A stretch of DNA of 64,000 nt from a virus. This document shows, one piece after another, positions 2,461-54,479 of this stretch. Under the pieces are notes generated by a model, which was not told the DNA's origin, searched no databases, and was given only the letters and a program-made list of their open reading frames with translations. The number at the start of each line of letters is the position of its first letter. The stretch's first letter is position 1. Position numbers and translations under genes: made by a program. The stretch covers positions 17,327 to 81,326 of the IMG/VR virus record IMGVR_UViG_3300029374_000315; one strand, given 5' to 3'.

Positions 2461-2673
2461 ATGGACGAGAATGTTTTCAATAACATAATGAATTTTTTCG
2501 ATGAATGGGAAGACACGTTAAATCATAGTATCGACACTATCATTAAAATAACAAGTGGGAAACCTGAATTAAACAACTGTAAAGAAATAGTTCTTGATAA
2601 AATTACGGCGCAGAAAAAATTTCTCTGGGAGCTAGAAAAATCTTTCTATAATAGATTTCAAAAGAGCAAATGA
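2461..2673 (+). CDS. hypothetical protein
   Basis: ATG 2 nt after upstream stop. Confidence 0.45.
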   Translation: MDENVFNNIMNFFDEWEDTLNHSIDTIIKITSGKPELNNCKEIVLDKITAQKKFLWELEKSFYNRFQKSK

Positions 2674-2682
2674 GGTAATAAT

Positions 2683-3195
2683 ATGAGAGAATTTGAAGGC
2701 TTTATTTTTCCTAACGGAAGAATTGTAGCGATTCCTGAAGAGGAATATATGGCAGCTATCGAAGCAGGAAAAGAAATTCTTGTGTTTTGTGGTGGATGGG
2801 CTGGTGGATACGCTAGAGCGTTTGGTGCAGATAAGGAACAGGATATTTATGAGCCTAATAAAACTTGTTACATGACCTATTCGTATGATGTCATGGATAA
2901 GACCTTTACGCCAGAAGATATGAAGCGGTTCGCTAAAGTGATTGTCACAGATGGTATCCGTGTGTACATGAAAACAGGTGAGTCGGCCAGTGATTATTAT
3001 TCTGGAACATTCTGTGACTGTTGTACGAAAGACAGGCTCGAAGAACATTACCCTGACACTTGTAGCAACGATATCGAACAATACGATTTCAGTGATTGCC
3101 AGACAGTTGATTTTGATATGACGGTTCGTATGCTGGGTGCAGATGATAAAGATTATGAAGGTATGGTAAAGATGCTCAAGGGGATTTTGAGGTGA
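2683..3195 (+). CDS. hypothetical protein
   Basis: 170 aa; RBS GAGGTAA. Confidence 0.55.
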   Translation: MREFEGFIFPNGRIVAIPEEEYMAAIEAGKEILVFCGGWAGGYARAFGADKEQDIYEPNKTCYMTYSYDVMDKTFTPEDMKRFAKVIVTDGIRVYMKTGESASDYYSGTFCDCCTKDRLEEHYPDTCSNDIEQYDFSDCQTVDFDMTVRMLGADDKDYEGMVKMLKGILR

Positions 3196-3199
3196 TAAA

Positions 3200-3421
3200 A
3201 TGTGGGATTTAGTTGAAAATGAATATTCTAAAAAATATGGGATTGGGTGCGCAACCTTTTTTCGTGACAAACAATTAAAAACAGCAATAGTTATGTATAA
3301 ATATAATGGCCGTAGCGTTATGTTTTGCTATTCCGAGTACGATAATAAGATTCTATCTGACGGTGATAAAGACGAAATTGAGATGACAATCAAAAAGAAA
3401 CTCAACTTTTGGAAGGATTAA
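3200..3421 (+). CDS. hypothetical protein, MWDL paralog family member 1
   Basis: N-terminus MWDLVENEYSKKYGIG shared with the next two genes. Confidence 0.55.
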   Translation: MWDLVENEYSKKYGIGCATFFRDKQLKTAIVMYKYNGRSVMFCYSEYDNKILSDGDKDEIEMTIKKKLNFWKD

Positions 3422-3423
3422 CT

Positions 3424-3660
3424 ATGTGGGATTTAATGGGTAACAATTATTCAGAAGTATACGGTATTGGATATGCTTTACTGAATGGAATTTCAGCTGG
3501 ATTTTATGTGAGTGTCATGTACAAGGATCTTGGAGATGAAATTTACTTCTATTATCTTGATAATGCTCCTTACGGAGAACTCGATGATAATACCAAAAAT
3601 AAAATTGAAGATATTATCCGTGATGACCTTAACAAGCGTCATATTTTTGGGGAGGACTGA
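3424..3660 (+). CDS. hypothetical protein, MWDL paralog family member 2
   Basis: MWDLMGNNYSEVYGIG; paralog of 3200..3421. Confidence 0.55.
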   Translation: MWDLMGNNYSEVYGIGYALLNGISAGFYVSVMYKDLGDEIYFYYLDNAPYGELDDNTKNKIEDIIRDDLNKRHIFGED

Positions 3661-3662
3661 TC

Positions 3663-3911
3663 ATGTGGGATCTGAGGGAAGTTCACGCTTGTTTTGATGG
3701 TGAAGGCTGGGTTTGGAATGAATCTTTTCATCACAAGAATGTGTTCGTAGGAGAGAATGAAGATCCGAAAGAAATCTTTTGGCAGGAATGTCAGATGTTT
3801 TTTCTTCAGGATTATCTAAACAAGTGTGAAATCGTGGATGATGGCGATATTCTGGAACTTCAATTGAAAGGTTCTGGTGAGCCGGTTCTTGCTATGGTGA
3901 TTGCAGAGTAA
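3663..3911 (+). CDS. hypothetical protein, MWDL paralog family member 3 (divergent)
   Basis: MWDLREV... N-terminus; third tandem copy. Confidence 0.5.
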   Translation: MWDLREVHACFDGEGWVWNESFHHKNVFVGENEDPKEIFWQECQMFFLQDYLNKCEIVDDGDILELQLKGSGEPVLAMVIAE

Positions 3912-3924
3912 AGGAGAATGAGTT

Positions 3925-4245
3925 ATGAAAATTCACCCTAAATATATTGATGTTTTGGAATCGCTGGATTGGCGCGTATGTGACTATACAGGTGATGGCA
4001 GAGTTGAAATTGAAAATTATTCTCCAGCAGGAGAGGACTTAATCGTTTGTGTGGAGGTTGAAAATTTTCCTGAATCAGTTTATGAGTATGCCTGTGATTT
4101 TGATGCTGATGAGCACGCAGAGATGTGGGTGGGGCATCGTGGTAAAGGCGGTTGTCCTTCTAGTGTCAGAGAACTTATTGACGACGCTGATGCTATTAAA
4201 GAAATGTTGAAAGAATTAGCTAATAGACTTATGGAGGTGGAATAA
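3925..4245 (+). CDS. hypothetical protein
   Basis: 106 aa, acidic; RBS AGGAGAATGAG. Confidence 0.5.
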   Translation: MKIHPKYIDVLESLDWRVCDYTGDGRVEIENYSPAGEDLIVCVEVENFPESVYEYACDFDADEHAEMWVGHRGKGGCPSSVRELIDDADAIKEMLKELANRLMEVE

Positions 4246-4248
4246 ATT

Positions 4249-4521
4249 ATGACTCGTTTTTATCTTAATGCGGGTGCTCTTGGCTGTTGGATGCACCAGA
4301 ATAAAGCACAACACACTGGTGCTTATGTCGAAGGTGTTTTGGTTGATAGTTTTGTTGTTGAAACAAAGCGTGGTGTTGCAGCTATCTATGAACACGCTCT
4401 GAATGAGTGGACCAGTAACTATTATGTTGAGTTCACCGATTATAAGAACGGTTTTAAGAACGGAGAGGTCGATAAGATTTGGTCTGATTGGTACGCTTTT
4501 GAAGAAAAGGCTAGTGCATAA
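4249..4521 (+). CDS. hypothetical protein
   Basis: 90 aa; GGAGGTGG RBS. Confidence 0.5.
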   Translation: MTRFYLNAGALGCWMHQNKAQHTGAYVEGVLVDSFVVETKRGVAAIYEHALNEWTSNYYVEFTDYKNGFKNGEVDKIWSDWYAFEEKASA

Positions 4522-4528
4522 GAGGTGA

Positions 4529-4720
4529 ATGTCTATGAATGATGTTGAAAAGATTATCAATGCCTTGAAGGACGAATATTCTTATTGCCAAGATATTGCT
4601 TACACTGCACTAAAAGAAAGCGATGAAGAGAGAATGACATGGTATTATGGCAAAGCAAACGGAATTAAAAAGTCTATTGAAATAATCGAAAAAATGAAGA
4701 ATTACGGAATCATTTTGTAA
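4529..4720 (+). CDS. hypothetical protein
   Basis: 63 aa; GAGGTG RBS. Confidence 0.45.
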   Translation: MSMNDVEKIINALKDEYSYCQDIAYTALKESDEERMTWYYGKANGIKKSIEIIEKMKNYGIIL

Positions 4721-4736
4721 AAGGGAGATTTTAGAT

Positions 4737-5603
4737 ATGAAAAACCTGTATTGCTACGACAATGAAATCATAAAGTGGATCTACGGTGATAATCTGTATT
4801 GCTTGCATATCCAGCACGATGATGAAGCAGATAATAATCCTCGTTGGTGGGATGACCATGATTCCACAATGGCCTGTTTCCATTCTCGATACAATCTGGG
4901 TGATAAGATTGATGAAAAAACACCGGAAGAGTTTTGGAATGACCTGGTTTACAAGTATTGTTCTGATGAAGAAATTCTGGATGCACTTCTAAATATGAAG
5001 TTGGAAGATACTTGTGTTGTTGTCGATGAAAATTATATCGATGAAAAACGCTATGCAATCTGTGATATTGGAATTCTATCTGATAAAAAAGTTTCGGAAA
5101 ATCCGATGTGTGTTGGATTGAAATATAACGAAATCATTACATATGTTCGTGGAGATTTTTCTATTAAAGATTGTCAGATCCTTCTCGAAAAACATATTGC
5201 ATGGCTTCCACTCTGGTTACATGACCACTCTGGCTTGTCTATGGATTGCGACACACGGTTTAGAGGTTCATGGGACGATAGCAATGTTGGCTGGATTGTA
5301 ATCGCTATTACAGATGGTTCTGATGAGACCAAAAACGAAGCGGAACGAATCATGCGTGATGAAGTTGAGATTTACAGCGATTATCTTTCTGGTGAAAACT
5401 ACGGCTATACACTTTATCGAGAAGAACACGGAGAGTGGAAAGAAATCGATAGGGCATTTGGATTTATCGGTACTGATGTGTTTGAAAATGGTATTGCATA
5501 CAGCGCTGGATGTGGTCTCGAAACAGCATTAAAGGAAGATCGGTGTAATATCGGTGAAGCAGAGAAAGTTGTTACTGTTACTTATAACTTTGATAACATT
5601 TAA
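4737..5603 (+). CDS. hypothetical protein (288 aa)
   Basis: Long ORF with AAGGGAG RBS; no recognisable motif. Confidence 0.6.
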   Translation: MKNLYCYDNEIIKWIYGDNLYCLHIQHDDEADNNPRWWDDHDSTMACFHSRYNLGDKIDEKTPEEFWNDLVYKYCSDEEILDALLNMKLEDTCVVVDENYIDEKRYAICDIGILSDKKVSENPMCVGLKYNEIITYVRGDFSIKDCQILLEKHIAWLPLWLHDHSGLSMDCDTRFRGSWDDSNVGWIVIAITDGSDETKNEAERIMRDEVEIYSDYLSGENYGYTLYREEHGEWKEIDRAFGFIGTDVFENGIAYSAGCGLETALKEDRCNIGEAEKVVTVTYNFDNI

Positions 5604-5616
5604 GGAGGCATGGATC

Positions 5617-5922
5617 ATGAAGAAACTTACAGCGGAAGAGTTTGCCGAAAAGGTTATGGAGAACGGCACTGAAATTGATTACAGTGAATGTTCTTCTAAG
5701 GATCGCGGTTGCGAGGTCTGGGAAATCTATGCGCATATCAATGAAAATGGCGAAGTAGTCCATGGAAATGGAATCGGAATCGAAAGTATCTGGACGTACC
5801 TAGAACTTGAAAATGAAGAACAGAGCAAGGCGTTTATGAACGGTGAGCTGGATGATATGGAAAAGAAAGTTATTATTGATGATCTTTACCCTGAATATCT
5901 TAAAATTTTGGAAAACCTATAA
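5617..5922 (+). CDS. hypothetical protein
   Basis: Internal ATG of ORF 5554, after AGGAGG. Confidence 0.5.
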   Translation: MKKLTAEEFAEKVMENGTEIDYSECSSKDRGCEVWEIYAHINENGEVVHGNGIGIESIWTYLELENEEQSKAFMNGELDDMEKKVIIDDLYPEYLKILENL

Positions 5923-17038: not shown

Positions 17039-17374
17039 ATGATTTATACTGTAACAATGATTGACTCGTTTAAGGATGAGCAGAATGCGAAATTTAGCTC
17101 GCCGGTATCAAATACCAAAGGTATCTATTGGATGCCAGATGATAGTTGGATTGCTGGGTACTTCACGGATTTGAAAGAAGCTATCCAGTCTGTGATTGAT
17201 AATGTGGCTGATGTCTTTGAACACTGCTACAACTATGCAGTTATTGAAGGGTACGAAGAAGGATTCTATCCTGTGGCCGAGCTGACGAAGTGGTTTAAGT
17301 ATGATGCCAAGAGCGACAAGGCATTTGAGATTGAACCGCCGTTGCATAATAATGTGCGTGGATATGCGTTTTAA
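17039..17374 (+). CDS. hypothetical protein
   Basis: Internal ATG of ORF 16913, right after upstream stop. Confidence 0.45.
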   Translation: MIYTVTMIDSFKDEQNAKFSSPVSNTKGIYWMPDDSWIAGYFTDLKEAIQSVIDNVADVFEHCYNYAVIEGYEEGFYPVAELTKWFKYDAKSDKAFEIEPPLHNNVRGYAF

Positions 17375-23000: not shown

Positions 23001-23085
23001 GGGGATATGGTGAAATTGGCAGCCACGCTTGATTCAAACTCAAGTGTCGAAAGACGTATCGGTTCAAATCCGATTATCCCTACCA
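23001..23085 (+). tRNA. tRNA-Leu (anticodon CAA)
   Basis: Cloverleaf drawn by hand: acceptor GGGGATA/TATCCCT, anticodon stem CTTGA/TCAAG with loop TTCAAAC, long variable arm, T-loop TTCAAAT, CCA encoded. Confidence 0.8.
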
Positions 23086-23282
23086 TGAAGATCAGTTGTT
23101 CTAGCTAGATCGGGGATTGGCCGTTCATTGGCAAACGACAAGCATCACACCGGTAAATGATGCCGAGCCCAATAGGAAGGGGAATAAGGTGCAAGCCGAG
23201 TAGCTGTCGGACGAATACCCTTCAGGTAGCCAGTAAACCGGAATGTAAAACAAATGTTGGCTGTTTCTGATCTTCTATATAA

Positions 23283-23365
23283 GCTACCGTGGTGGAATGG
23301 CAGACACCGGAGACTTAAAATCTCCTGTCGGAAACGACGTGCCCGTTCAAGTCGGGTCGGTAGCA
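23283..23365 (+). tRNA. tRNA-Leu (anticodon TAA)
   Basis: Acceptor GCTACCG/CGGTAGC, anticodon stem GGAGA/TCTCC with loop CTTAAAA, long variable arm, T-loop TTCAAGT. Confidence 0.8.
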
Positions 23366-23372
23366 TTGATAT

Positions 23373-23448
23373 CCGGGTGTAGCTCAGTTGGAAGAGCGCG
23401 TGCTTTGGGAGCATGAGGCCGCAGGATCGTGACCTGTCACTCGGACCA
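23373..23448 (+). tRNA. tRNA-Pro (anticodon TGG), atypical T-loop
   Basis: Acceptor CCGGGTG/CACTCGG, D-arm GCTCAGTTGGAAGAGC, anticodon loop TTTGGGA, CCA encoded; T-loop reads ATCGTGA (non-canonical). Confidence 0.55.
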
Positions 23449-23536
23449 GCCCGAAAGGGCATGTAGAATTTTTCATTCACATTATTCCCAGCTCTCTGGA
23501 AACGGAGCAGTGTGACGTAGTAAGCTGGGTATATGA

Positions 23537-23607
23537 TGCGCCATCGCCAAGCGGTAAGGCAGAGGACTTTGACTCCTCCATCACAGGTTCAACCCCTGTT
23601 GGCGCAA
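23537..23607 (+). tRNA. tRNA-Gln (anticodon TTG)
   Basis: Acceptor TGCGCCA/TGGCGCA (U1:A72, as in bacterial tRNA-Gln), anticodon loop CTTTGAC, T-arm ACAGG-TTCAACC-CCTGT. Confidence 0.75.
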
Positions 23608-23612
23608 TTTAT

Positions 23613-23694
23613 GCGGATATGGTGGAATGGCAGACACGCCAGACTTAGGATCTGGTGCTTCGGCGTGTGGGTTCGATGCCCACTATCCGCACCA
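23613..23694 (+). tRNA. tRNA-Leu (anticodon TAG)
   Basis: Acceptor GCGGATA/TATCCGC, anticodon stem CCAGA/TCTGG with loop CTTAGGA, long variable arm, T-loop TTCGATG, CCA encoded. Confidence 0.8.
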
Positions 23695-23801
23695 CGATCA
23701 TAGAATGGTTGCGTACCGTTTTGTTGATCTCCTTTGACTGCCACTATTATTCCCAGCTCGCCAGTGATGGTGCAGTAGTGCTTTGTAAGCTGGGTGATTA
23801 T

Positions 23802-23876
23802 GCAGCGGTCGTACAATGGTTAGTATATCAGCCTTCCAAGCTGAGGATGAGGTTTCGACTACCTTTCGCTGCTCCA
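23802..23876 (+). tRNA. tRNA-Gly (anticodon TCC)
   Basis: Acceptor GCAGCGG/TCGCTGC, anticodon stem TCAGC/GCTGA with loop CTTCCAA, T-arm GAGGT-TTCGACT-ACCTT, CCA encoded. Confidence 0.7.
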
Positions 23877-24063
23877 ATCTCGTATGGGTAGGATTTTTAG
23901 CGGTCAAATCCGGCTGCGCCTGTGCGAGATACCACCCCGAAAGGGGCGAGATATAGGAAATGTGCATCACTGTTATTCCTTCCTCGTCTATATGATATAG
24001 ATGCAATAGTGTTTATAAGGAAGGTTCCCAGTTGAATAGTTGCAGCTGTTTGACTGGTAATAT

Positions 24064-24140
24064 GGGATAGTAGCTCAGTTGGTCAGAGCTGGCGGCTCAT
24101 AACCGCTTGGTCGCGAGTTCAAATCTTGCCTGTCCCACCA
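24064..24140 (+). tRNA. tRNA-Met/Ile2 (anticodon CAT), elongator-type
   Basis: Acceptor GGGATAG/CTGTCCC, D-arm GCTCAGTTGGTCAGAGC, anticodon loop CTCATAA, T-loop TTCAAAT, CCA encoded. Confidence 0.8.
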
Positions 24141-47194: not shown

Positions 47195-47986
47195 ATGGTA
47201 GTTAAACTGATTACACATACTCCTGATCCTGAAAAAGTAGTAGCTGCCGCTGCAAAGCTGTGCTATTCCAATTCGAGTATTCAGGATTTGATGGATGGAC
47301 TGACCGATGAGAAGGTCGATGAGTTTCTGAATCGACTTTCTAGCCTTGGTCACGCCAGTCCTACTGAGCATGTGACTTTTACTTTTGGAATCGAAGGTGT
47401 GAGTCGTTCTTTGCTGGCACAGATCACCCGGCATCGCATTGCATCTTTCAGCGTACAGAGTCAGCGCTATGTGCGAATGAACAATGCGGAAATCGTGGTT
47501 CCTGATGTTATCGATGATGATAGCGAAGCACGAGAGGTATTTGAACAGGCGATTCAGACTGCTGAATATTCCTATAAACATCTGTGCCAGATTCTCGAAG
47601 ACAAGATTACTGAGGAATTGATGGTTGCCGATTCTCGCCTGACTGAGAAAAAGGCACGAGCAAAAGCATCAAAGATCGCAAATGAGAACGCGCGTGCTGT
47701 TCTTCCGAATGCTTGTTCTACTAAGATGATTGTTACAATGAACGCTCGTTCGTTGAATAATTTCTTTAACCTGCGTTGCTGCGAACGTGCACAGCCGGAA
47801 ATCAAAGAGCTTGCAACCGAGATGTTGAAGCTTGTCTATCCGATTGCTCCTCATCTATTTAAGTATGCTGGTCCAAATTGCTGTGGTAATGGTTGTACTG
47901 AAGGTATGATGTCTTGTGGTAAGTTCCACGAGATTCGTGATAAATACGACAAACTAAAACAGGAGGCTTTAAATGCAAACACTTGA
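47195..47986 (+). CDS. thyX: flavin-dependent thymidylate synthase
   Basis: ThyX signature RHRIASFSVQSQRY (RHRxxSxxxxSxR). Confidence 0.85.
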   Translation: MVVKLITHTPDPEKVVAAAAKLCYSNSSIQDLMDGLTDEKVDEFLNRLSSLGHASPTEHVTFTFGIEGVSRSLLAQITRHRIASFSVQSQRYVRMNNAEIVVPDVIDDDSEAREVFEQAIQTAEYSYKHLCQILEDKITEELMVADSRLTEKKARAKASKIANENARAVLPNACSTKMIVTMNARSLNNFFNLRCCERAQPEIKELATEMLKLVYPIAPHLFKYAGPNCCGNGCTEGMMSCGKFHEIRDKYDKLKQEALNANT

Positions 47987-48458
47987 CGAAATTAAGAAGA
48001 ACGTCGAGCACCCGTCTTATTACGGCGGTGCAGACAATCCCTATGAGGCTATCAAAGTGCTGCGAGAGTGGCAGTTAGACAAGGATGCTTATCTTTGGAA
48101 TGTTGGTAAGTATCTAAGCCGGGCAGGTAACAAAGATGGCAATTCTCAGCTTCAAGATTTGGCGAAGGCACGTTTTTATTTGGACCATAAAATCCGGCTT
48201 TTAGAGGAACAGCAGAAGGTTACTGAAAGTGTCGTAGATACGCTAAAGAAAGTTCCTAATGATGTTACTGATAAGTTAACTACGATGTCGGATTACGGAG
48301 ACGTATATATTCCTACTATTAGAAAGACAGTAAATGAATGCGTTCAGTATGTTCCTCGTCCTGATGATTCATTCAAAGAAAAGCTGGCAAAGGCAGAGCC
48401 GACGTGCAATATTGAGACTGCCGTGGTTCCTGATTATGCCGATGAGGTCAAGTTTTAA
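47973..48458 (+). CDS. DUF3310-like phage protein
   Basis: HPSYYGG..PYEAIKV...W..GKYLSRAG pattern typical of DUF3310 proteins. Confidence 0.4.
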   Translation: MQTLDEIKKNVEHPSYYGGADNPYEAIKVLREWQLDKDAYLWNVGKYLSRAGNKDGNSQLQDLAKARFYLDHKIRLLEEQQKVTESVVDTLKKVPNDVTDKLTTMSDYGDVYIPTIRKTVNECVQYVPRPDDSFKEKLAKAEPTCNIETAVVPDYADEVKF

Positions 48459-48544
48459 TGAGAAATGAAAACGATACATATTTAATTTTTGTTATATTTT
48501 TCTTCATTATAGTACCAGGACTTGCTTTGATGGCTTTTAGATGA
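48458..48544 (+). CDS. tiny hydrophobic peptide (28 aa)
   Basis: ATG overlapping upstream stop (TAATG); GAGGT RBS; YLIFVIFFFIIVPGLALMAF. Confidence 0.3.
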   Translation: MRNENDTYLIFVIFFFIIVPGLALMAFR

Positions 48545-48555
48545 GGTTTACATAA

Positions 48556-48651
48556 ATGAGAATGAGATACAACTGGGAAGAACCATATGCGGCATTTGCC
48601 CTGTTTGTTATAATGTTGTTTTTTGGCTTTGCCAAGTTTGTTTTAAAATAA
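48556..48651 (+). CDS. tiny hydrophobic peptide (31 aa)
   Basis: GAGGT RBS 9 nt upstream; AAFALFVIMLFFGFAKFVL TM segment. Confidence 0.3.
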   Translation: MRMRYNWEEPYAAFALFVIMLFFGFAKFVLK

Positions 48652-48666
48652 TCAAGGAGAAAATAC

Positions 48667-50190
48667 ATGAATATGATGTTTATTGCAGTTCCTGTCGTTG
48701 TTATCCTTTTGGTTGCCTTTGCATTTACTTGTTATAAGAAGGCTCCTCCGACTCAGGCAATCGTTGTGACCGGCTTTGGACTGTCTAAGCCGAAGGTTAT
48801 CTGTGGTCGTGGAGTGTTCGTCCTGCCTGTTATTCAGCGAGCTGATCGTCTGAATATGCGACTGCTCAAGATTGATGTCAAGACTCCTGAGACCGGTGTT
48901 AAGACTAAAGAGGGCGTTTCTTTGTGGTTGGACTCTGTTGTTACTGTTCAGGTTTACTCTGAAAACTCTACTGTAACTGATGAAGAAATCAAGAGTGCGG
49001 GCTGTGCAGATGCTAAAACCTATATCAGTGCCCGTCAGCAGGCTGCTATTTCTAACTTCCTTGGCATGAGTGAAGATGGTATCAACGAGAAGATTAACGA
49101 TGTCCTTCAGGGCAATCTGCGTGAGATTGTTTCCGAAATGACTGTCAACGACATTCTGACTAACCGTAAGCAGATGGCTATCTCTGTTGTTGAGAATGCT
49201 CGTCCTGATCTTGCAAAGATGGGTCTGGAGGTTGTTACCTTTAATGTTCAGGACATCAAGGATGCTATTGACGCTCAGGGTCATAATCACGGTGTCATCG
49301 AGGCAATTGGTGTTCAGCAGGAAGAACTGGTGAAGAAACAGGCTGAGATTGCCAAGGCAGAGGCAGCTCGTGATATTGCTCGCGCAAAGGCTGATACTGC
49401 CCGTGAAGCAAACGAGAAGGAAATTGAGTCCAAGACTGCTATCGCCCAGCGCAATAATGAGTATCTGCTGGCTCAGGCCGCTCTGAAGACTAAGGCTGAT
49501 AGGGCAAATGCTGATGCCGAGGCTGCTGGTCAGATTCAGATGAACCTTCGTGACAAGGAAATTAAGGAAGCTGAAGCCGATGCAGCTATTGCACAGCAGA
49601 AAAAGATGGTTGAATTGGCTGCTAAGGAAGCAGAAGTTCGCCAGCAGAAGCTGGATGCGGAAGTTCGTAAGCAGGCAGATGCCGATTTGTATAAGCGTCA
49701 GAAGGAAGCTGAAGCAAAGAAGTACGAAGCAGAGCGTTCTGCAGAATCTGCAAAGTTCGCCAAGGAACAGGAAGCAGAAGGCATCCGTATGGTTGGCATG
49801 GCAGAAGCTGAGGCCATCAAGCAGAAGGGTCTTGCTGAAGCAGAAGCTATGTTGAAGAAGGCTGAAGCTTACAAGCAGTACAATGGTGCGGCTATGGGTG
49901 AAATGATCATCAAGATTCTGCCTAACATCGCAGCTGAGGTTGCAAAGCCGCTGGCCTCCATCGATAAGGTTTCTATTATCGGCAGTAATGCAAATGGCGT
50001 TTCTGAGATTTCCGGTAATGTTCCGGCAGTAATGGCTCAGACCTTTGAGGCCGTTCGTGAAGCAACTGGCATCGATATGAAGGAAATTGTCCGTGCTAAC
50101 AGCTATGATGCAAAGGTTACTAAGAATGTGAATCTTGTGAGCGATTCTACGATTGTTTCTGAAAAGAACGATGCGCAGGATGCTGAGTAA
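48667..50190 (+). CDS. flotillin-like SPFH/band-7 domain protein
   Basis: N-terminal TM; SPFH core IVVTGFG...VLPVIQRADRLNMRLLKIDV; C-terminal EA-rich flotillin-type coiled coil. Confidence 0.8.
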   Translation: MNMMFIAVPVVVILLVAFAFTCYKKAPPTQAIVVTGFGLSKPKVICGRGVFVLPVIQRADRLNMRLLKIDVKTPETGVKTKEGVSLWLDSVVTVQVYSENSTVTDEEIKSAGCADAKTYISARQQAAISNFLGMSEDGINEKINDVLQGNLREIVSEMTVNDILTNRKQMAISVVENARPDLAKMGLEVVTFNVQDIKDAIDAQGHNHGVIEAIGVQQEELVKKQAEIAKAEAARDIARAKADTAREANEKEIESKTAIAQRNNEYLLAQAALKTKADRANADAEAAGQIQMNLRDKEIKEAEADAAIAQQKKMVELAAKEAEVRQQKLDAEVRKQADADLYKRQKEAEAKKYEAERSAESAKFAKEQEAEGIRMVGMAEAEAIKQKGLAEAEAMLKKAEAYKQYNGAAMGEMIIKILPNIAAEVAKPLASIDKVSIIGSNANGVSEISGNVPAVMAQTFEAVREATGIDMKEIVRANSYDAKVTKNVNLVSDSTIVSEKNDAQDAE

Positions 50191-50201
50191 GAGGTGATTA
50201 C

Positions 50202-53200
50202 ATGGAATATGTGATTAAACGCGATGGAACGAAAGTTCCTTTTGATAAAAGTAAGATTGTAAATGCAATCGAGAAGGCGATGAATGATTCCTCAGATCCT
50301 GTTGACCACAAGCTGAGTGATAGTATTGCATCGGAAATCGCAGCAATCGATTCTACTATGGATGTAGAAGCAATTCAGAATGCAGTTGAAAATCGCCTTA
50401 TGCAGAGTGGTTACTATGAGACAACTCGTTCTTATATGAACTATCGGTATCTGCATGGTATTGCTCGCAGCAACTACAAGGAGCTGATGGATGCGGTTGA
50501 AGAAAAACTTCTTGGCAAGAAGATTGATAATCAGAATGCCAATGTCGATGAAGCATCTTTTGGCGGTCGTATTGGCGAGATGAGCCGGGTGGTTTCCAAG
50601 CGATATGCTCTTGACTACTGTATGTCTAAGATGGCTCGTGAGAATCACGAGAACAATGAAATTTATATCCACGATCTCGATAGCTACGCAGTTGGTATGC
50701 ATAACTGCTACGATTCCGCTACAAAGTTTATTACTCAAACTGGTGTTAAGCGTTTTGGCGACTGTACCGATGGTCAAATTGTGTATGTTCTGGATAAGAA
50801 TGGCGAGTGGAGAAAAGCAACCGTTCATAAATATGGAAAGCAGAAAATGTATGAGTTGACTTTCAAAAGTAGCCTTACTACTAAAAAAGTCACATGTACT
50901 AGAAATCATCGTTGGGTTCTTGAAAATGGAGAGGTCACTGACAATATCAATATTGGAGATTCTTTGATTCTGACCACAAAAGTGCAAAATAAATATTCAT
51001 CCAATGATAGCTTGTGGTGTTTTGGTTTTGTTCTTGGAGATGGCGTTGACTTTTATATGAAGTCAAAGGATAAGAGCAGAATCACAAACAGCAGTATGCA
51101 GGTTCGTCTTTGTGGGCATAAAATTGAATATATCAATAAATTTTTGGATAATGGCTGGTCAAAAAGACAGACACACAAAAACGGAGATATCACATTGATT
51201 TCTCGTGGGAATGGTGCTTTTAAACAGGCGTTCTTGGATAATGAATTTTGGAAGATCATGTCATATGATGACCTGTGCAATATTTTTGAAGGTTACGTTC
51301 ATGCTGATGGACATTTTAGAGAAAATGGTTCAGTAATGCTGTCAACGTCTGATCCTCGAATGAAGCACTTTATTGAAGATGTGTCATCCGTTTGCGGCTA
51401 TTACATTTGGTCTGAAAATGAGAAATTTAATGACACAAATTTTAAGGATGGCAGAACCTTATACGAGTTTTATTTGGTAAAAGAGCAGTCTACGAAATGG
51501 ACTTTGCAAAGTATTGCGGCCAGCAGAGACGGCGATAATGGGTATAAAACTGCATGGTGTGTCGAGGAGCCCGTAACAAAAACGTTTATTCTTGATGGTT
51601 GTATGACTACAGGTAACTGTTTAAGTATCCCGTTTGATGACCTGCTTGCGAATGGTTTCAACACTCGCCAGACCGATGTTCGTCCTGCACAGTCCATCAG
51701 TACGGCATTCCAGCTTGTCGCAGTCATCTTCCAGATTCAAAGTCTTCAGCAGTTCGGCGGCGTGAGCGCAACACACCTAGACTGGACTATGGTTCCTTAT
51801 GTACGGAAGAGCTTTTCGAAGCATTTTAAAGATGGGATTAAATACATTAAGCCTGAAGATGACCCCAGCAGAGTACCCAAAGAATTATCTTTTAACGACC
51901 TAGAGGCTAATGATCCAAGGAATGCAAAAGTATATCAGTACGCAATGGATATGACCAAACGTGAGTTGAACCAAGCCGTTGAAGGCATGTACCATAATCT
52001 AAATACACTCCAATCACGTAGCGGAAATCAGCTTCCGTTCACGTCTATCAACTATGGCACATGTACGTTGCCTGAAGGCCGAATGGTTATCGAAGCATTG
52101 CTAAATGCTTCCATTAAGGGTATCGGCAAATTACATAGAACTAGCATTTTCCCTTGTGGTATTTTCCAGATGGCTAAGGGAATCAATCGTGCTCCCGGAG
52201 ACCCTAATTACGATATGTATCAGCTGGCACTGCGTTCCACTGCACAGCGTCTTTATCCTAATTATGCCAATGTCGATTGGAGCGGCAATGAAGGATACGA
52301 TAAAAATAATGTAAAAACGTATTTTTCGACGATGGGCTGTAGAACTGCAAATGGTTGGGATGTCAACGGCTTTGAGCAGTTGAAGGATGGCCGAGGGAAT
52401 ATCTGTCCTGTTACGATTATTCTTCCTACTCTTGCAATGGAAGCGAAGGAATATACCATTAAAAACGCTACTGGAGAAGACCTTGAAGGACAGACTGTAG
52501 CCAAGTTTATGTCCATTCTTGACCAGAAGTTGCATGAAGCAAAAGATATGCTGATTGAACGCTTCGAGTGGATTTGCTCTCAGTCTCCTGAGTCTGCAAA
52601 ATTCATGTGGGAGAATGGAACAATGGCCGGATATGACGGAAAAGATATTCGTTCCGCTCTGAAACATGGCACGTTGGCTGTTGGTTTGCTCGGCATGGCT
52701 GAAACTCTTCAGATTTTGATTGGAGAAGATCAAACTTGTGATAATGGCCTTGAGCTTGCAAAGAAAATTTGTCAGCTCTACAAAGATCGCTGCGACGAAT
52801 TCAAGCACAAGTATTCTCTAAATTTTGGCGTGTACTTTACGCCCGCAGAAAACCTTTGTTTTACTGCCATGCAGAGATTTAAGGCAAAATATGGTGATAT
52901 TAAAAACGTTTCAGACAAAGAGTTTTTCACTAACAGTGTCCATGTTCCGGTATGGCGAGAAGTGACACCGTTTGAAAAGATCGATATTGAGTCTCAGCTT
53001 GACGGATATTCAAGCGCAGGCTGCATCGCGTATGTAGAGCTCGACTCGACTGTAAAGAATAATCTCGGTGCGCTGGAAACAATTGTGAACTATGCAATGG
53101 ATCATGACATTCCGTATTTTGCAGTGAATGTTCCAAATGATACCTGTATGGAATGCGGTTATTGTGATGAGATTGGTGATACTTGCCCTGAGTGTGGAAG

Positions 53201-53324
53201 TCATAATATTCGGCGTCTTCGTCGTGTGACGGGCTATCTCACGGGCGATTACACTACAGCTTTCAATCTTGGTAAGCAGCAAGAAGTTGAGCTTCGTGTT
53301 AAGCACAATCGAGTGATTCATTAA
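50202..53324 (+). CDS. nrdD: anaerobic ribonucleoside-triphosphate reductase (class III, NrdD) containing an intein
   Basis: N-terminal ATP-cone; C-terminal Zn ribbon CMECGYC..CPECG and glycyl-radical motif RRVTGYLTGD; 285-aa insertion with Hint and LAGLIDADG blocks. Confidence 0.85.
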   Translation: MEYVIKRDGTKVPFDKSKIVNAIEKAMNDSSDPVDHKLSDSIASEIAAIDSTMDVEAIQNAVENRLMQSGYYETTRSYMNYRYLHGIARSNYKELMDAVEEKLLGKKIDNQNANVDEASFGGRIGEMSRVVSKRYALDYCMSKMARENHENNEIYIHDLDSYAVGMHNCYDSATKFITQTGVKRFGDCTDGQIVYVLDKNGEWRKATVHKYGKQKMYELTFKSSLTTKKVTCTRNHRWVLENGEVTDNINIGDSLILTTKVQNKYSSNDSLWCFGFVLGDGVDFYMKSKDKSRITNSSMQVRLCGHKIEYINKFLDNGWSKRQTHKNGDITLISRGNGAFKQAFLDNEFWKIMSYDDLCNIFEGYVHADGHFRENGSVMLSTSDPRMKHFIEDVSSVCGYYIWSENEKFNDTNFKDGRTLYEFYLVKEQSTKWTLQSIAASRDGDNGYKTAWCVEEPVTKTFILDGCMTTGNCLSIPFDDLLANGFNTRQTDVRPAQSISTAFQLVAVIFQIQSLQQFGGVSATHLDWTMVPYVRKSFSKHFKDGIKYIKPEDDPSRVPKELSFNDLEANDPRNAKVYQYAMDMTKRELNQAVEGMYHNLNTLQSRSGNQLPFTSINYGTCTLPEGRMVIEALLNASIKGIGKLHRTSIFPCGIFQMAKGINRAPGDPNYDMYQLALRSTAQRLYPNYANVDWSGNEGYDKNNVKTYFSTMGCRTANGWDVNGFEQLKDGRGNICPVTIILPTLAMEAKEYTIKNATGEDLEGQTVAKFMSILDQKLHEAKDMLIERFEWICSQSPESAKFMWENGTMAGYDGKDIRSALKHGTLAVGLLGMAETLQILIGEDQTCDNGLELAKKICQLYKDRCDEFKHKYSLNFGVYFTPAENLCFTAMQRFKAKYGDIKNVSDKEFFTNSVHVPVWREVTPFEKIDIESQLDGYSSAGCIAYVELDSTVKNNLGALETIVNYAMDHDIPYFAVNVPNDTCMECGYCDEIGDTCPECGSHNIRRLRRVTGYLTGDYTTAFNLGKQQEVELRVKHNRVIH
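50763..51617 (+). other. intein with LAGLIDADG homing-endonuclease domain inside nrdD
   Basis: Starts CTDGQIVYVLDKNG (block A), then TCTRNHRW (block B), LAGLIDADG-like LWCFGFVLGDGVDFY and IFEGYVHADGHF, ends ...FILDGCMTTGN followed by Cys+1. Confidence 0.75.
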
Positions 53325-53354
53325 CGTGTGAGTTGTGGGTTGGTGGGATTACAT

Positions 53355-53432
53355 ATGAAAGAAATTATTGTTTTCTTTGTGATTGTATGGGTTATCGCCT
53401 ATTACATTTTAAAAGATAACTACAAAGATTGA
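53355..53432 (+). CDS. tiny hydrophobic peptide (25 aa)
   Basis: GGTGGGA RBS; MKEIIVFFVIVWVIAYYIL; not in ORF track. Confidence 0.3.
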   Translation: MKEIIVFFVIVWVIAYYILKDNYKD

Positions 53433-53442
53433 GGAGATATTT

Positions 53443-54294
53443 ATGAAGAAATTTATGGCAATTTTTGTTGCATTCCTCGTTGCGGTTGGCGCAGTGCTTT
53501 GTACCGAGCGAGTACATACTGGTTATGTTGGTGTTGTTTATTCCGCAAAGGGTGTCGAGCAGCAAACTATTTCTCAGGGCTGGCATTTTATGAGCCCTCT
53601 GAAGCATGTGTCTGAGTTCCCGATTACTCAGCAGCGAGTAGTCTTTTCTAATGCTCCGTCCGATTATGGCGCAAAGGAACACGCAGATTGGCACATTGAT
53701 GCTCCTGCTAATGGCGGTACGATTGCAATCAACCTGACTGTCAATTATAACTTCCTGCCGGAGCATGTTGTTGAACTGTACACCAAGTTTGGTGGTATGG
53801 ACGGTGAGAGCCTGATGGAGAGCAAGATCCAGAACGATATTATTGCTTACGTCAAGGAAGTTACTCCTCAGTTCAGTGTCATGCAGATTTATTCTGATGA
53901 TCGCGCAGGTGTTAATACTGCAATCACCAACTATTTGAATGAGAGGCTGACCGCAGAGTATGGAATCAATGTCTCTTCCGCACTGATTGTTGACGCACAG
54001 CCTGATGATACCCTGATGCAGAAGATTCGTGCCAAGGAGCAGGCAAAGCAGGATGCAGAGATTGCAGAGCTGAATAAGCAGACCGCTCTGGCTCAGGCAG
54101 AGACTGATAAAGTTAAGGCACAGACGGAAGCTGACGTTAAGATGATCGAAGCACAGGCCGAGGCTGATGCAAACAAGGTACTCTCGGAGTCTATTACTCC
54201 TGAACTGATTCAGATGAAGGAAGCAGAAGCTCGTCTGAAGCATGGTTGGGTCACCGTTCAGGGTGCAGATACAGTCGTCACCAAGGGTGAGTAA
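53443..54294 (+). CDS. SPFH/band-7 (prohibitin/HflK-like) membrane protein
   Basis: N-terminal TM; SPFH core GYVGVVYSAKG...GWHFMSPL; C-terminal coiled coil. Confidence 0.7.
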   Translation: MKKFMAIFVAFLVAVGAVLCTERVHTGYVGVVYSAKGVEQQTISQGWHFMSPLKHVSEFPITQQRVVFSNAPSDYGAKEHADWHIDAPANGGTIAINLTVNYNFLPEHVVELYTKFGGMDGESLMESKIQNDIIAYVKEVTPQFSVMQIYSDDRAGVNTAITNYLNERLTAEYGINVSSALIVDAQPDDTLMQKIRAKEQAKQDAEIAELNKQTALAQAETDKVKAQTEADVKMIEAQAEADANKVLSESITPELIQMKEAEARLKHGWVTVQGADTVVTKGE

Positions 54295-54308
54295 ATGAGG
54301 CTTTAAAA

Positions 54309-54479
54309 ATGAAAATTTTCGCAAATATCTTAGGATTTATTTTATCCTGGTTTATCACAGTCCTTATTCTCTACGGTGTTTGGAAAATGCTTGGGCCAAA
54401 TTTTAGACTGTGGGTTGCAAGTGGAGTCTGGTTAGTTCTACTTGTGTTTGGAGGTTTTAAAACTAACAAGAGTCAATAA
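54309..54479 (+). CDS. small two-TM membrane protein (56 aa)
   Basis: ANILGFILSWFITVLILYGVW...ASGVWLVLLVFGG; hand-translated. Confidence 0.35.
   Translation: MKIFANILGFILSWFITVLILYGVWKMLGPNFRLWVASGVWLVLLVFGGFKTNKSQ

Follow-up and report, generated by a model that had tools for sequence, protein, structure and literature searches.

What two SPFH-family membrane scaffolds might do for a phage, and whether they do it together, is the question raised by a 64,000-nucleotide (nt) stretch of viral DNA (positions 17,327 to 81,326 of IMG/VR record IMGVR_UViG_3300029374_000315), which at its full length is here called the window. It encodes a flotillin (flot) and a prohibitin/HflK-like protein (band7) on either side of nrdD, both in the company of very short membrane-protein genes, and an earlier note on this DNA had taken them for a coordinated SPFH pair, each preceded by its own micro-peptides. 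Comparison with related phages points elsewhere: band7 and a micro-protein of 25 amino acids (aa), p25, form, on the sequence evidence set out below, a genuine two-gene unit, and flot belongs to a separate accessory cassette. The genes concerned, with transmembrane abbreviated as TM, are as follows.

p28, 48458..48544, + strand: 28-aa single-TM micro-gene, optional
p31, 48556..48651, + strand: 29–31-aa single-TM micro-gene, whose conserved start is probably the ATG at 48562 (MRYNWEEP...)
flot, 48667..50190, + strand: 507-aa flotillin, a minority accessory cassette
nrdD, 50202..53324, + strand: anaerobic ribonucleotide reductase of 1040 aa, lying between both cassettes
p25, 53355..53432, + strand: 25-aa single-pass membrane micro-protein (MKEIIVFFVIVWVIAYYILKDNYKD)
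band7, 53443..54294, + strand: 283-aa prohibitin/HflK-like SPFH protein, phrog_200
p56, 54309..54479, + strand: 56-aa two-TM protein downstream of band7

All seven nearly abut on the same strand, filling the intergenic gaps, and each is preceded by a GAGG/GGAG-type Shine-Dalgarno sequence 7–10 nt upstream; gaps in the co-directional replication operon around the cassettes measure 10–30 nt. A six-frame list of open reading frames (ORFs) reproduced every ORF coordinate of the earlier note. Small TM ORFs are rare in the window (about 6 of about 150 predicted + strand ORFs). Of the four genes that directly adjoin an SPFH gene, three are of this kind, compared with 3 of about 142 other window ORFs (Fisher p = 1.5e-4).

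A Pfam profile check bore out both SPFH assignments, with Band_7 matches at 6.3e-23 for band7 (82.2 bits against a cut-off of 23.6) and at 8.4e-20 for flot (PF01145, 72 bits against the gathering cut-off of 23.6), the latter also matching the Flot domain PF15975 at 4.6e-8 (33.6 bits, cut-off 27). The band7 protein further matches phrog_200 at 2.6e-54. A phmmer search of the PDB with the single band7 sequence found nothing, and a family profile was needed: built from 10 phage homologues, it matched PHB1 at 5.8e-24 (profile positions 14–263 of 281), PHB2 at 3e-22 and HflK at 1.5e-12, with weaker matches also to erlin, stomatin and QmcA. By this nearly full-length profile match, band7 is a prohibitin/HflK-type SPFH protein; it consists of a K-rich N-flank, an N-terminal TM anchor, the SPFH domain, a coiled coil and a conserved C-terminal EAEARLKHGWV motif.

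The p25 gene ends 10 nt before band7, with its stop codon inside the band7 Shine-Dalgarno sequence (GAT TGA GGAG), and its translation is probably coupled to that of band7. The offset is fixed, p25 lying 88 nt upstream of band7 in 80 of 80 band7 loci, and no stop or frameshift was found in p25 in any of them. Among 29 distinct p25 alleles the changes are mainly synonymous or conservative, with Nei-Gojobori proportions of 0.14 for nonsynonymous (pN) and 0.77 for synonymous (pS) differences; p25 is, judged by its codon changes, under purifying selection. Two diverged alleles, MREIVIFFLIVWAISYYILKDNFK and MLFIKQWIILFLVITVVVYYIIENKF, keep the TM segment and a YY(I/L)(L/I)(K/E)(D/N)N(Y/F)K end. The public annotation of related contigs has no gene in the p25 interval, nor in that of p30, a peptide described below.

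To follow the cassettes through related genomes, we took the neighbouring DUF3310 gene, a marker neutral to both, as the seed of a census, which gave 65 loci that span the whole region. Of these, 52 carried band7 with p25, 6 carried flot, 1 carried band7 and flot together and 8 carried neither. p25 was present in all 52 loci with band7 and in none of the 13 without it, and the two genes are therefore gained and lost as one cassette. The pairing of SPFH proteins with micro-peptides proposed in the earlier note thus stands for band7 and p25, a pairing also found in other lineages, and fails for flot with p28 and p31.

The two SPFH genes themselves showed a negative association in the census (odds ratio 0.03, p = 8e-4; many contigs are close relatives and kinship is uncorrected), and in a flot-seeded sample 11 of 17 complete loci had no band7. 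Because flot and band7 co-occur in only one of the 65 loci, they are independent accessory cassettes and the window is a rare combination, so the proposed coordinated pair flanking nrdD dissolves into separate cassettes. A hetero-pair of flot and band7 resembling HflK/HflC was ruled out by this co-occurrence and by the opposite predicted topologies of the two proteins. The second scaffold in the window, flot, is unusual and probably redundant.

The flot protein is, by profile and alignment, a member of the flotillin family without the status of a FloT equivalog: it aligns end to end with human flotillin-1 (PDB 9l3g; 1.5e-48, residues 27–489) and matches the NCBIfam FloT model (NF058507) at 4.5e-76 with 256.8 bits, under the 700-bit equivalog cut-off. 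Its architecture comprises an N-terminal hydrophobic anchor, an SPFH domain and an EA-rich coiled coil/Flot domain. Like flotillin-1 and FloT, it combines an EA-repeat/Flot region with a hydrophobic anchor followed by basic residues; unlike Bacillus FloT, it is a phage-borne minority cassette with a sub-equivalog score. Human Flot1 and Flot2 form a 44-mer cage. By tblastn, the flotillin is present in only 10 phage records, against 502 for the prohibitin-like protein.

The nearest flotillins outside the phage lineage are 74–78% identical to flot. One of them (P0208, about 77% identical) sits among glycoside hydrolases, a MatE transporter, a rhamnosidase and MFS transporters, and therefore in a plain bacterial chromosomal context, where it stands alone with neither NfeD nor a micro-ORF upstream; others lie in mobile-looking elements. 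By these similarities, flot is host-like and has been exchanged fairly recently, in a direction that we infer. It thus provides a documented case of a host-like flotillin that travels, as a minority cassette, with a very abundant phage of the human gut. On one of these mobile-looking contigs, outside the phage lineage (L108, 3158–6560), genes for LemA, a 254-aa protein and a 120-aa TM protein form an operon that ends with a flotillin, which falls into one cluster (≥90% identity) with a flotillin named in Clostridium sp. TM06-18; this order may point to LemA and flotillin being functionally linked. The flotillin of the crAss-like phage csAssE-Sib is preceded by a 164-aa protein (L123 2399–2893) with three TMs and a beta-rich C-terminal domain, an architecture like that of a short NfeD, although Pfam gave no NfeD match for it.

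The micro-genes upstream of flot belong to a variable slot between the DUF3310 gene and nrdD. In most genomes this slot holds a LemA-family gene (PF04011, 1e-33) and a two-TM phrog_3886 protein, its commonest occupants (L020 2379–3660); some genomes have only a 30-aa peptide, p30 (MRYNWEYPLV...), followed directly by nrdD, others have p31 and flot, and a single locus, L002 (4707–7521), has LemA, a 268-aa protein and flot. Apart from L002, where LemA and the 268-aa gene take its place, p31 precedes flot in all intact flot loci. Its allele p30 (45–52% identical) lies directly upstream of nrdD in loci without flot, and no p31-like ORF was found upstream of the 74–78% identical flotillins in other contexts. 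As a flotillin partner, p31 was ruled out by p30 occurring without flot and by flotillins occurring without p31, and p28 by its presence in flot-less relatives upstream of LemA.

The ATG of p28 overlaps the DUF3310 stop (TAATG). A micro-ORF occupies the p28 slot in about 8 of 95 related loci, with LemA the next gene in most, and takes three allelic forms: two related ones (MRNENDTY... and MKNENNTY..., 68% identity) and an unrelated 32-aa TM peptide (MRKNDDWNY...). By NG86, the ratio of nonsynonymous to synonymous substitution (dN/dS) comes to about 0.25 for p28, and the comparison of p31 with p30 gives about 0.24. With divergent alleles and low pN or dN/dS, p25, p28 and p31 therefore all behave as coding genes, and the micro-ORFs are conserved in relatives. 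A weak hairpin lies inside p31, the p30 allele is without it, and an Rfam scan of the region matched no RNA family.

A common ribosome-binding site and first codons (GAGGTTTACATA..ATGAGATACAACTGG, MRYNW.xP) are found in p31, p30 and LemA, which diverge thereafter; on this resemblance p31 is a slot resident related to the LemA N-terminal anchor. The conserved junction GAGGTTTACATA..ATGAGATACAACTGG, of about 35 nt (window 48535–48580; also L001, L020, L021 and L002), precedes LemA, p30 or p31 and looks, from its sequence, like a recombination or module-exchange boundary. The end of the optional p28 mini-cassette recreates the same junction.

At the other end of the run, p56 matches phrog_36365 at 6.2e-5. 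It had been counted with the band7 group, which it adjoins in many relatives; in others it lies about 290 nt away, and 33–38% identical alleles replace it elsewhere, including after nrdD in loci without band7. That grouping is accordingly given up, and p56 is, by its distribution among these sequences, a slot-resident small membrane gene unlinked to band7. None of p25, p28, p31 and p56 had a Pfam match, holin or other, at E ≤ 0.01. Membership of the holins was rejected for all four, which had no holin match and lie in a replication and nucleotide-metabolism module, and a defence-system reading was dropped when PADLOC gave zero matches for flot, band7 and p56.

The pairing of a prohibitin-like SPFH gene with a small TM gene recurs in most of the phage lineages sampled. 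A tblastn search found the prohibitin-like protein in 502 phage records (from phages of Staphylococcus, Bacillus, Enterococcus and Streptococcus, haloarchaeal viruses and others), and we compared 16 SPFH loci from different lineages, 14 of them annotated phage loci and 2 from unannotated gut phages. A small TM partner was defined as a single-pass protein of ≤110 aa encoded on the same strand as the phrog_200 SPFH gene and abutting or overlapping it. The loci include the following.

Phage K: MbpV, 102 aa, small TM directly upstream of SPFH
Sextaecvirus S-CoN_Ph16: 91-aa small TM directly upstream of SPFH
Sundance: 51-aa small TM directly upstream of SPFH
BigBertha: 44-aa small TM directly upstream of SPFH
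PBS1: 50-aa small TM directly upstream of SPFH
Clostridium phage Amboise: 59-aa small TM directly upstream of SPFH
phiST1: 58-aa small TM directly upstream of SPFH
Roseobacter phage DSS3P8: 77-aa small TM directly upstream of SPFH
Two unannotated gut phages: 68- and 54-aa small TM directly upstream of SPFH
Enterococcus phage ECP3: 49-aa small TM directly downstream of SPFH
Halovirus HRTV-5: 44-aa small TM directly downstream of SPFH
Thrax1: unannotated 27-aa candidate upstream of SPFH
A3Wally: SPFH protein with additional N-terminal TM segments of its own

Among annotated coding sequences in the 14 loci, small TM proteins made up 10 of 26 SPFH-adjacent genes and 2 of 81 non-adjacent ones (p = 7e-6). 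Similarly, Bacillus and Brevibacillus phage SPFH proteins served as seeds for an independent IMG/VR sample, in which seven of nine clusters at 80% identity had a small TM ORF directly upstream, with gaps of -38 to +12 nt, and the enrichment was again clear (7 of 18 adjacent against 5 of 133, p = 6e-5). Where SPFH identity is down to 63–78%, the partner is still conserved at the protein level. Across lineages the partners have a common architecture, with a YY..K-type juxtamembrane pattern in some, and p25 is the shortest among the lineages sampled; no common Pfam or PHROG family was found among them, the peptides being too short for a statistical test of homology. In most lineages, Kayvirus excepted, the SPFH pair stands beside genes for ribonucleotide reductase (RNR), ThyA/ThyX, DHFR, DNA polymerase and gyrase, a nucleotide-metabolism neighbourhood (L099–L107, L115, L116, L131) that echoes thyX and nrdD in the window.

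The p25-band7 pair is like MbpV-MbpS of Kayvirus, in which a small N-terminal-TM protein is encoded directly upstream of a prohibitin-like SPFH protein of about 260–290 aa, the genes abutting or overlapping. The band7 protein aligns with the phage K SPFH protein over 92% of its length, although identity is only about 26%, and the partners differ: MbpV has 102 aa, a long charged tail and a place in the lysis region, whereas p25 has 25 aa, a 6-residue tail and a place in the nucleotide-metabolism region.

Cellular SPFH genes are often found in operons with NfeD-type partners, such as B. subtilis yuaF-floT, E. coli qmcA-ybbJ and archaeal stomatin-NfeD, often with overlapping or coupled translation. 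As in those operons, band7 is paired with an adjacent membrane-protein gene, but its partner is without an OB-fold domain. NfeD (PF01957), the type of protein that the earlier note gave as the usual SPFH partner, had no match when the window's micro-ORFs and its other TM-bearing ORFs were scanned; at 25–31 aa the partners are too short for the NfeD OB fold. The arrangement thus resembles, by analogy, an SPFH-partner operon with a minimal single-pass protein in the place of NfeD, and for the SPFH scaffolds of viruses a partner other than NfeD may be the rule.

Phage SPFH proteins as such have long been recorded, being listed in T4-like phages (PMC1524935) since 2006 and in Vi01-like phages (PMC3220722). 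For Kayvirus MbpS a role in Sec-dependent export of Tgl has been proposed, with the neighbouring MbpV noted in passing (PMC7150955), and a 2026 paper calls the role of phage SPFH proteins unclear (PMC13239085). In a literature search of incomplete coverage we found no paper in which an SPFH protein and a small TM protein are taken together as a conserved module of phages, nor any devoted to phage flotillins. Within the reach of that search, the earlier claim of an undescribed module holds for the two-gene unit; the SPFH component is not new, being annotated in more than 500 records. A prohibitin-type SPFH protein with a tiny single-pass protein provides a concrete two-gene unit for these long-unexplained phage genes, of which gene callers largely miss the smaller member, as in the public assemblies examined.

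The charge distribution allows the orientation of these proteins to be predicted. In 11 of 13 lineages the SPFH N-flanks carry a charge of +2 to +4 and zero acidic residues, while in the partners the TM segment comes first and K/R follow it; the charges of flot are opposite to those of band7, with none before the TM segment and K/R after. Accordingly, band7 is predicted to lie with its N-terminus inside and its bulk outside, p25 to run antiparallel (N-out/C-in) and flot to have its bulk in the cytoplasm. The phage could then have an SPFH scaffold on either membrane face, and the rarity of genomes with both genes suggests partial redundancy.

The overall explanation that we consider rather probable is that the cassettes are independent, that p25 and band7 act as a membrane-cage unit, that flot acts alone, and that p28, p31 and p56 are separate. 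Solved assemblies of prohibitin, HflK/C, erlin, stomatin, QmcA and flotillin are ring or cage oligomers abutting the membrane, and a cage may be expected for band7 because its solved SPFH relatives form them. Thus, band7 subunits would assemble as a ring or cage against the outer face of the cytoplasmic membrane, anchored by N-terminal TM helices that themselves form a ring, and the antiparallel p25 helix would join this anchor ring or sit within it, as a minimal stand-in for the NfeD-type partner of cellular operons. Expressed with early or middle lytic genes, the pair might wall off a patch of membrane or a membrane client. Prohibitin PHB1/PHB2 and bacterial HflK/HflC cages enclose FtsH-type AAA proteases; band7 has, like these proteins, an N-terminal TM anchor, an SPFH domain and a coiled coil, and its predicted N-in/bulk-out orientation matches theirs, but unlike them it is a single phage gene without a paralogous subunit, its partner being a micro-peptide. 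By family precedent the most likely client would be the host FtsH protease, and its capture could affect the stability of phage or host membrane proteins and, in a temperate phage, the lysis-lysogeny decision. The flot protein alone would probably alter membrane organisation from the inner face.

A broader version of this explanation, which we put forward tentatively as a possibility, is that a band7-type protein with a micro-protein constitutes a widespread, phage-specific two-component cage, in Firmicutes phages, haloarchaeal viruses and some proteobacterial phages, in which the micro-protein takes over the function of NfeD and a host membrane machine such as FtsH is captured so as to steer the course of infection, with p25 as the minimal natural form.

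Several points weigh against the membrane-cage unit and its generality. The enterobacterial phages Privateer and TacPo2 have no small TM gene beside the SPFH gene. With no demonstrable homology among the partners, the pairing could be convergent or in part a clustering of membrane genes, and p25, which has almost no extramembrane tail where the other partners are 44–102 aa long, may not be functionally equivalent to them. The topology is derived solely from the positive-inside rule, the FtsH link is a family analogy, and lytic phages, which have no lysogeny decision to make, carry the same pair. Finally, the negative association of flot and band7 is only suggestive, being uncorrected for the relatedness of the contigs.

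The position of the cassettes bears on a second explanation, in which they are lysogenic-conversion or superinfection-exclusion genes that the prophage expresses and that alter the host membrane, keeping incoming phage DNA out, or otherwise benefit the lysogen. They are embedded in a tight co-directional replication operon, and a scan around them gave counts of promoters and terminators at or below shuffled expectation, so that separate transcription units are not supported. Furthermore, the same pair occurs in strictly lytic phages (K, Bacillus SPO1-like phages and PBS1), and no PADLOC defence model matched. We therefore regard this explanation as unlikely, even though the phage is temperate, with an integrase, Xis and chromosomally integrated relatives, both cassettes are variably present accessory genes in the manner of morons, and an SPFH gene lies beside an annotated superinfection-exclusion gene in Vi01-like phages.

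A role in timing lysis, with the small protein resembling a holin or antiholin and the SPFH cage corralling it or aiding the export of lysis enzymes, has been suggested before for Kayvirus MbpS and MbpV, whose genes in phage K lie between those for the endolysin and the Tgl transglycosylase, MbpV being described as holin-like. Endolysin genes are also found within about 1 kb in A3Wally and Privateer, and the partners consist, as the proposal would have it, of a TM segment followed by a charged tail. In p25, however, that tail is only 6 residues long, no scanned partner has a significant Pfam match to holins or anything else, and in the window and most lineages the pair lies among genes of DNA and nucleotide metabolism (RNR, ThyA/ThyX, DNA polymerase, gyrase), which makes a lysis role improbable here.

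Least probable of all, in our view, is that the micro-ORFs have no function as peptides, being coupling leader ORFs, spacers or recombination leftovers beside SPFH genes that are single-gene morons: p31 and p30 do share their ribosome-binding site and first five codons (MRYNW) with LemA, as a recombination junction would, one p31 copy is frameshifted (L012), and p25 changes more quickly than band7 (in one lineage, identities of 71% and 96%), but divergent alleles keep their (near-)exact length, hydrophobicity and motifs with pN well under pS, the 80 p25 loci are free of stops and frameshifts, and the partner in other phages is a 44–102-aa protein conserved where SPFH identity is only 63–78%.

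The phage that carries the p25-band7 unit is large (about 130 kb) and temperate, and the window represents its replication and nucleotide-metabolism module, encoding a DnaB-like helicase, a Pol III alpha-like polymerase, RecJ, exonuclease V, a ligase, a methyltransferase, ThyX and NrdD. Hundreds of human-gut contigs about 130 kb long encode near-identical band7 proteins, and relatives are also integrated within bacterial contigs of 2.76–3.06 Mb, one of them labelled Faecalibacterium prausnitzii; the host is probably Faecalibacterium. At one end of the element, phages of this lineage encode FolD, a Tn916-type Xis and a tyrosine integrase (L119 19437–20852; L120, on a 2.76-Mb contig), and from these genes, the integrated relatives and the hundreds of contigs the phage is taken to be temperate and very abundant. 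A megablast search of the region against GenBank phages gave no match, placing it as a phage without a close cultured relative.

Between the two cassettes, nrdD matches Pfam NRDD at 1.9e-142 together with the ATP-cone and Gly_radical domains and carries an intein-like insert of 304 aa (aa 169–472, nt 50706–51617). The insert starts with Cys and ends with Asn, followed by Cys, at a site that is uninterrupted in L020 (GMHNC|LSIPFDD). Pfam did not flag the insert; motifs resembling LAGLIDADG (FGFVLGDG, EGYVHADG) were found in it by eye. In L034, L050, L052 and L066 (about 2590–5880), nrdD is interrupted elsewhere by an insert encoding an ORF of about 246 aa, which looks like a second mobile insertion site (intein or homing-endonuclease intron).

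Relatives also carry alternative alleles of nrdD, only about 25% identical (window 50202–53324 against L021 3683–5878), and of thyX, about 34% identical (window 47195–47986 against L020 1195–1911). Divergent alleles at the same positions therefore indicate whole-gene replacement in an otherwise syntenic phage population. In many loci a 110-aa ORF, MDTTQQILERDW..., with no family assignment, lies between the 25%-identity nrdD allele and p25 (L019 5544–5876); the window is without it. Downstream of band7, the lineage has genes for a radical-SAM (NrdG-like) protein and a dUTPase. Elsewhere in the window, seven tRNA genes (Leu x3, Pro, Gln, Gly and Met) are clustered at 23001–24140, in a stretch of higher GC content.

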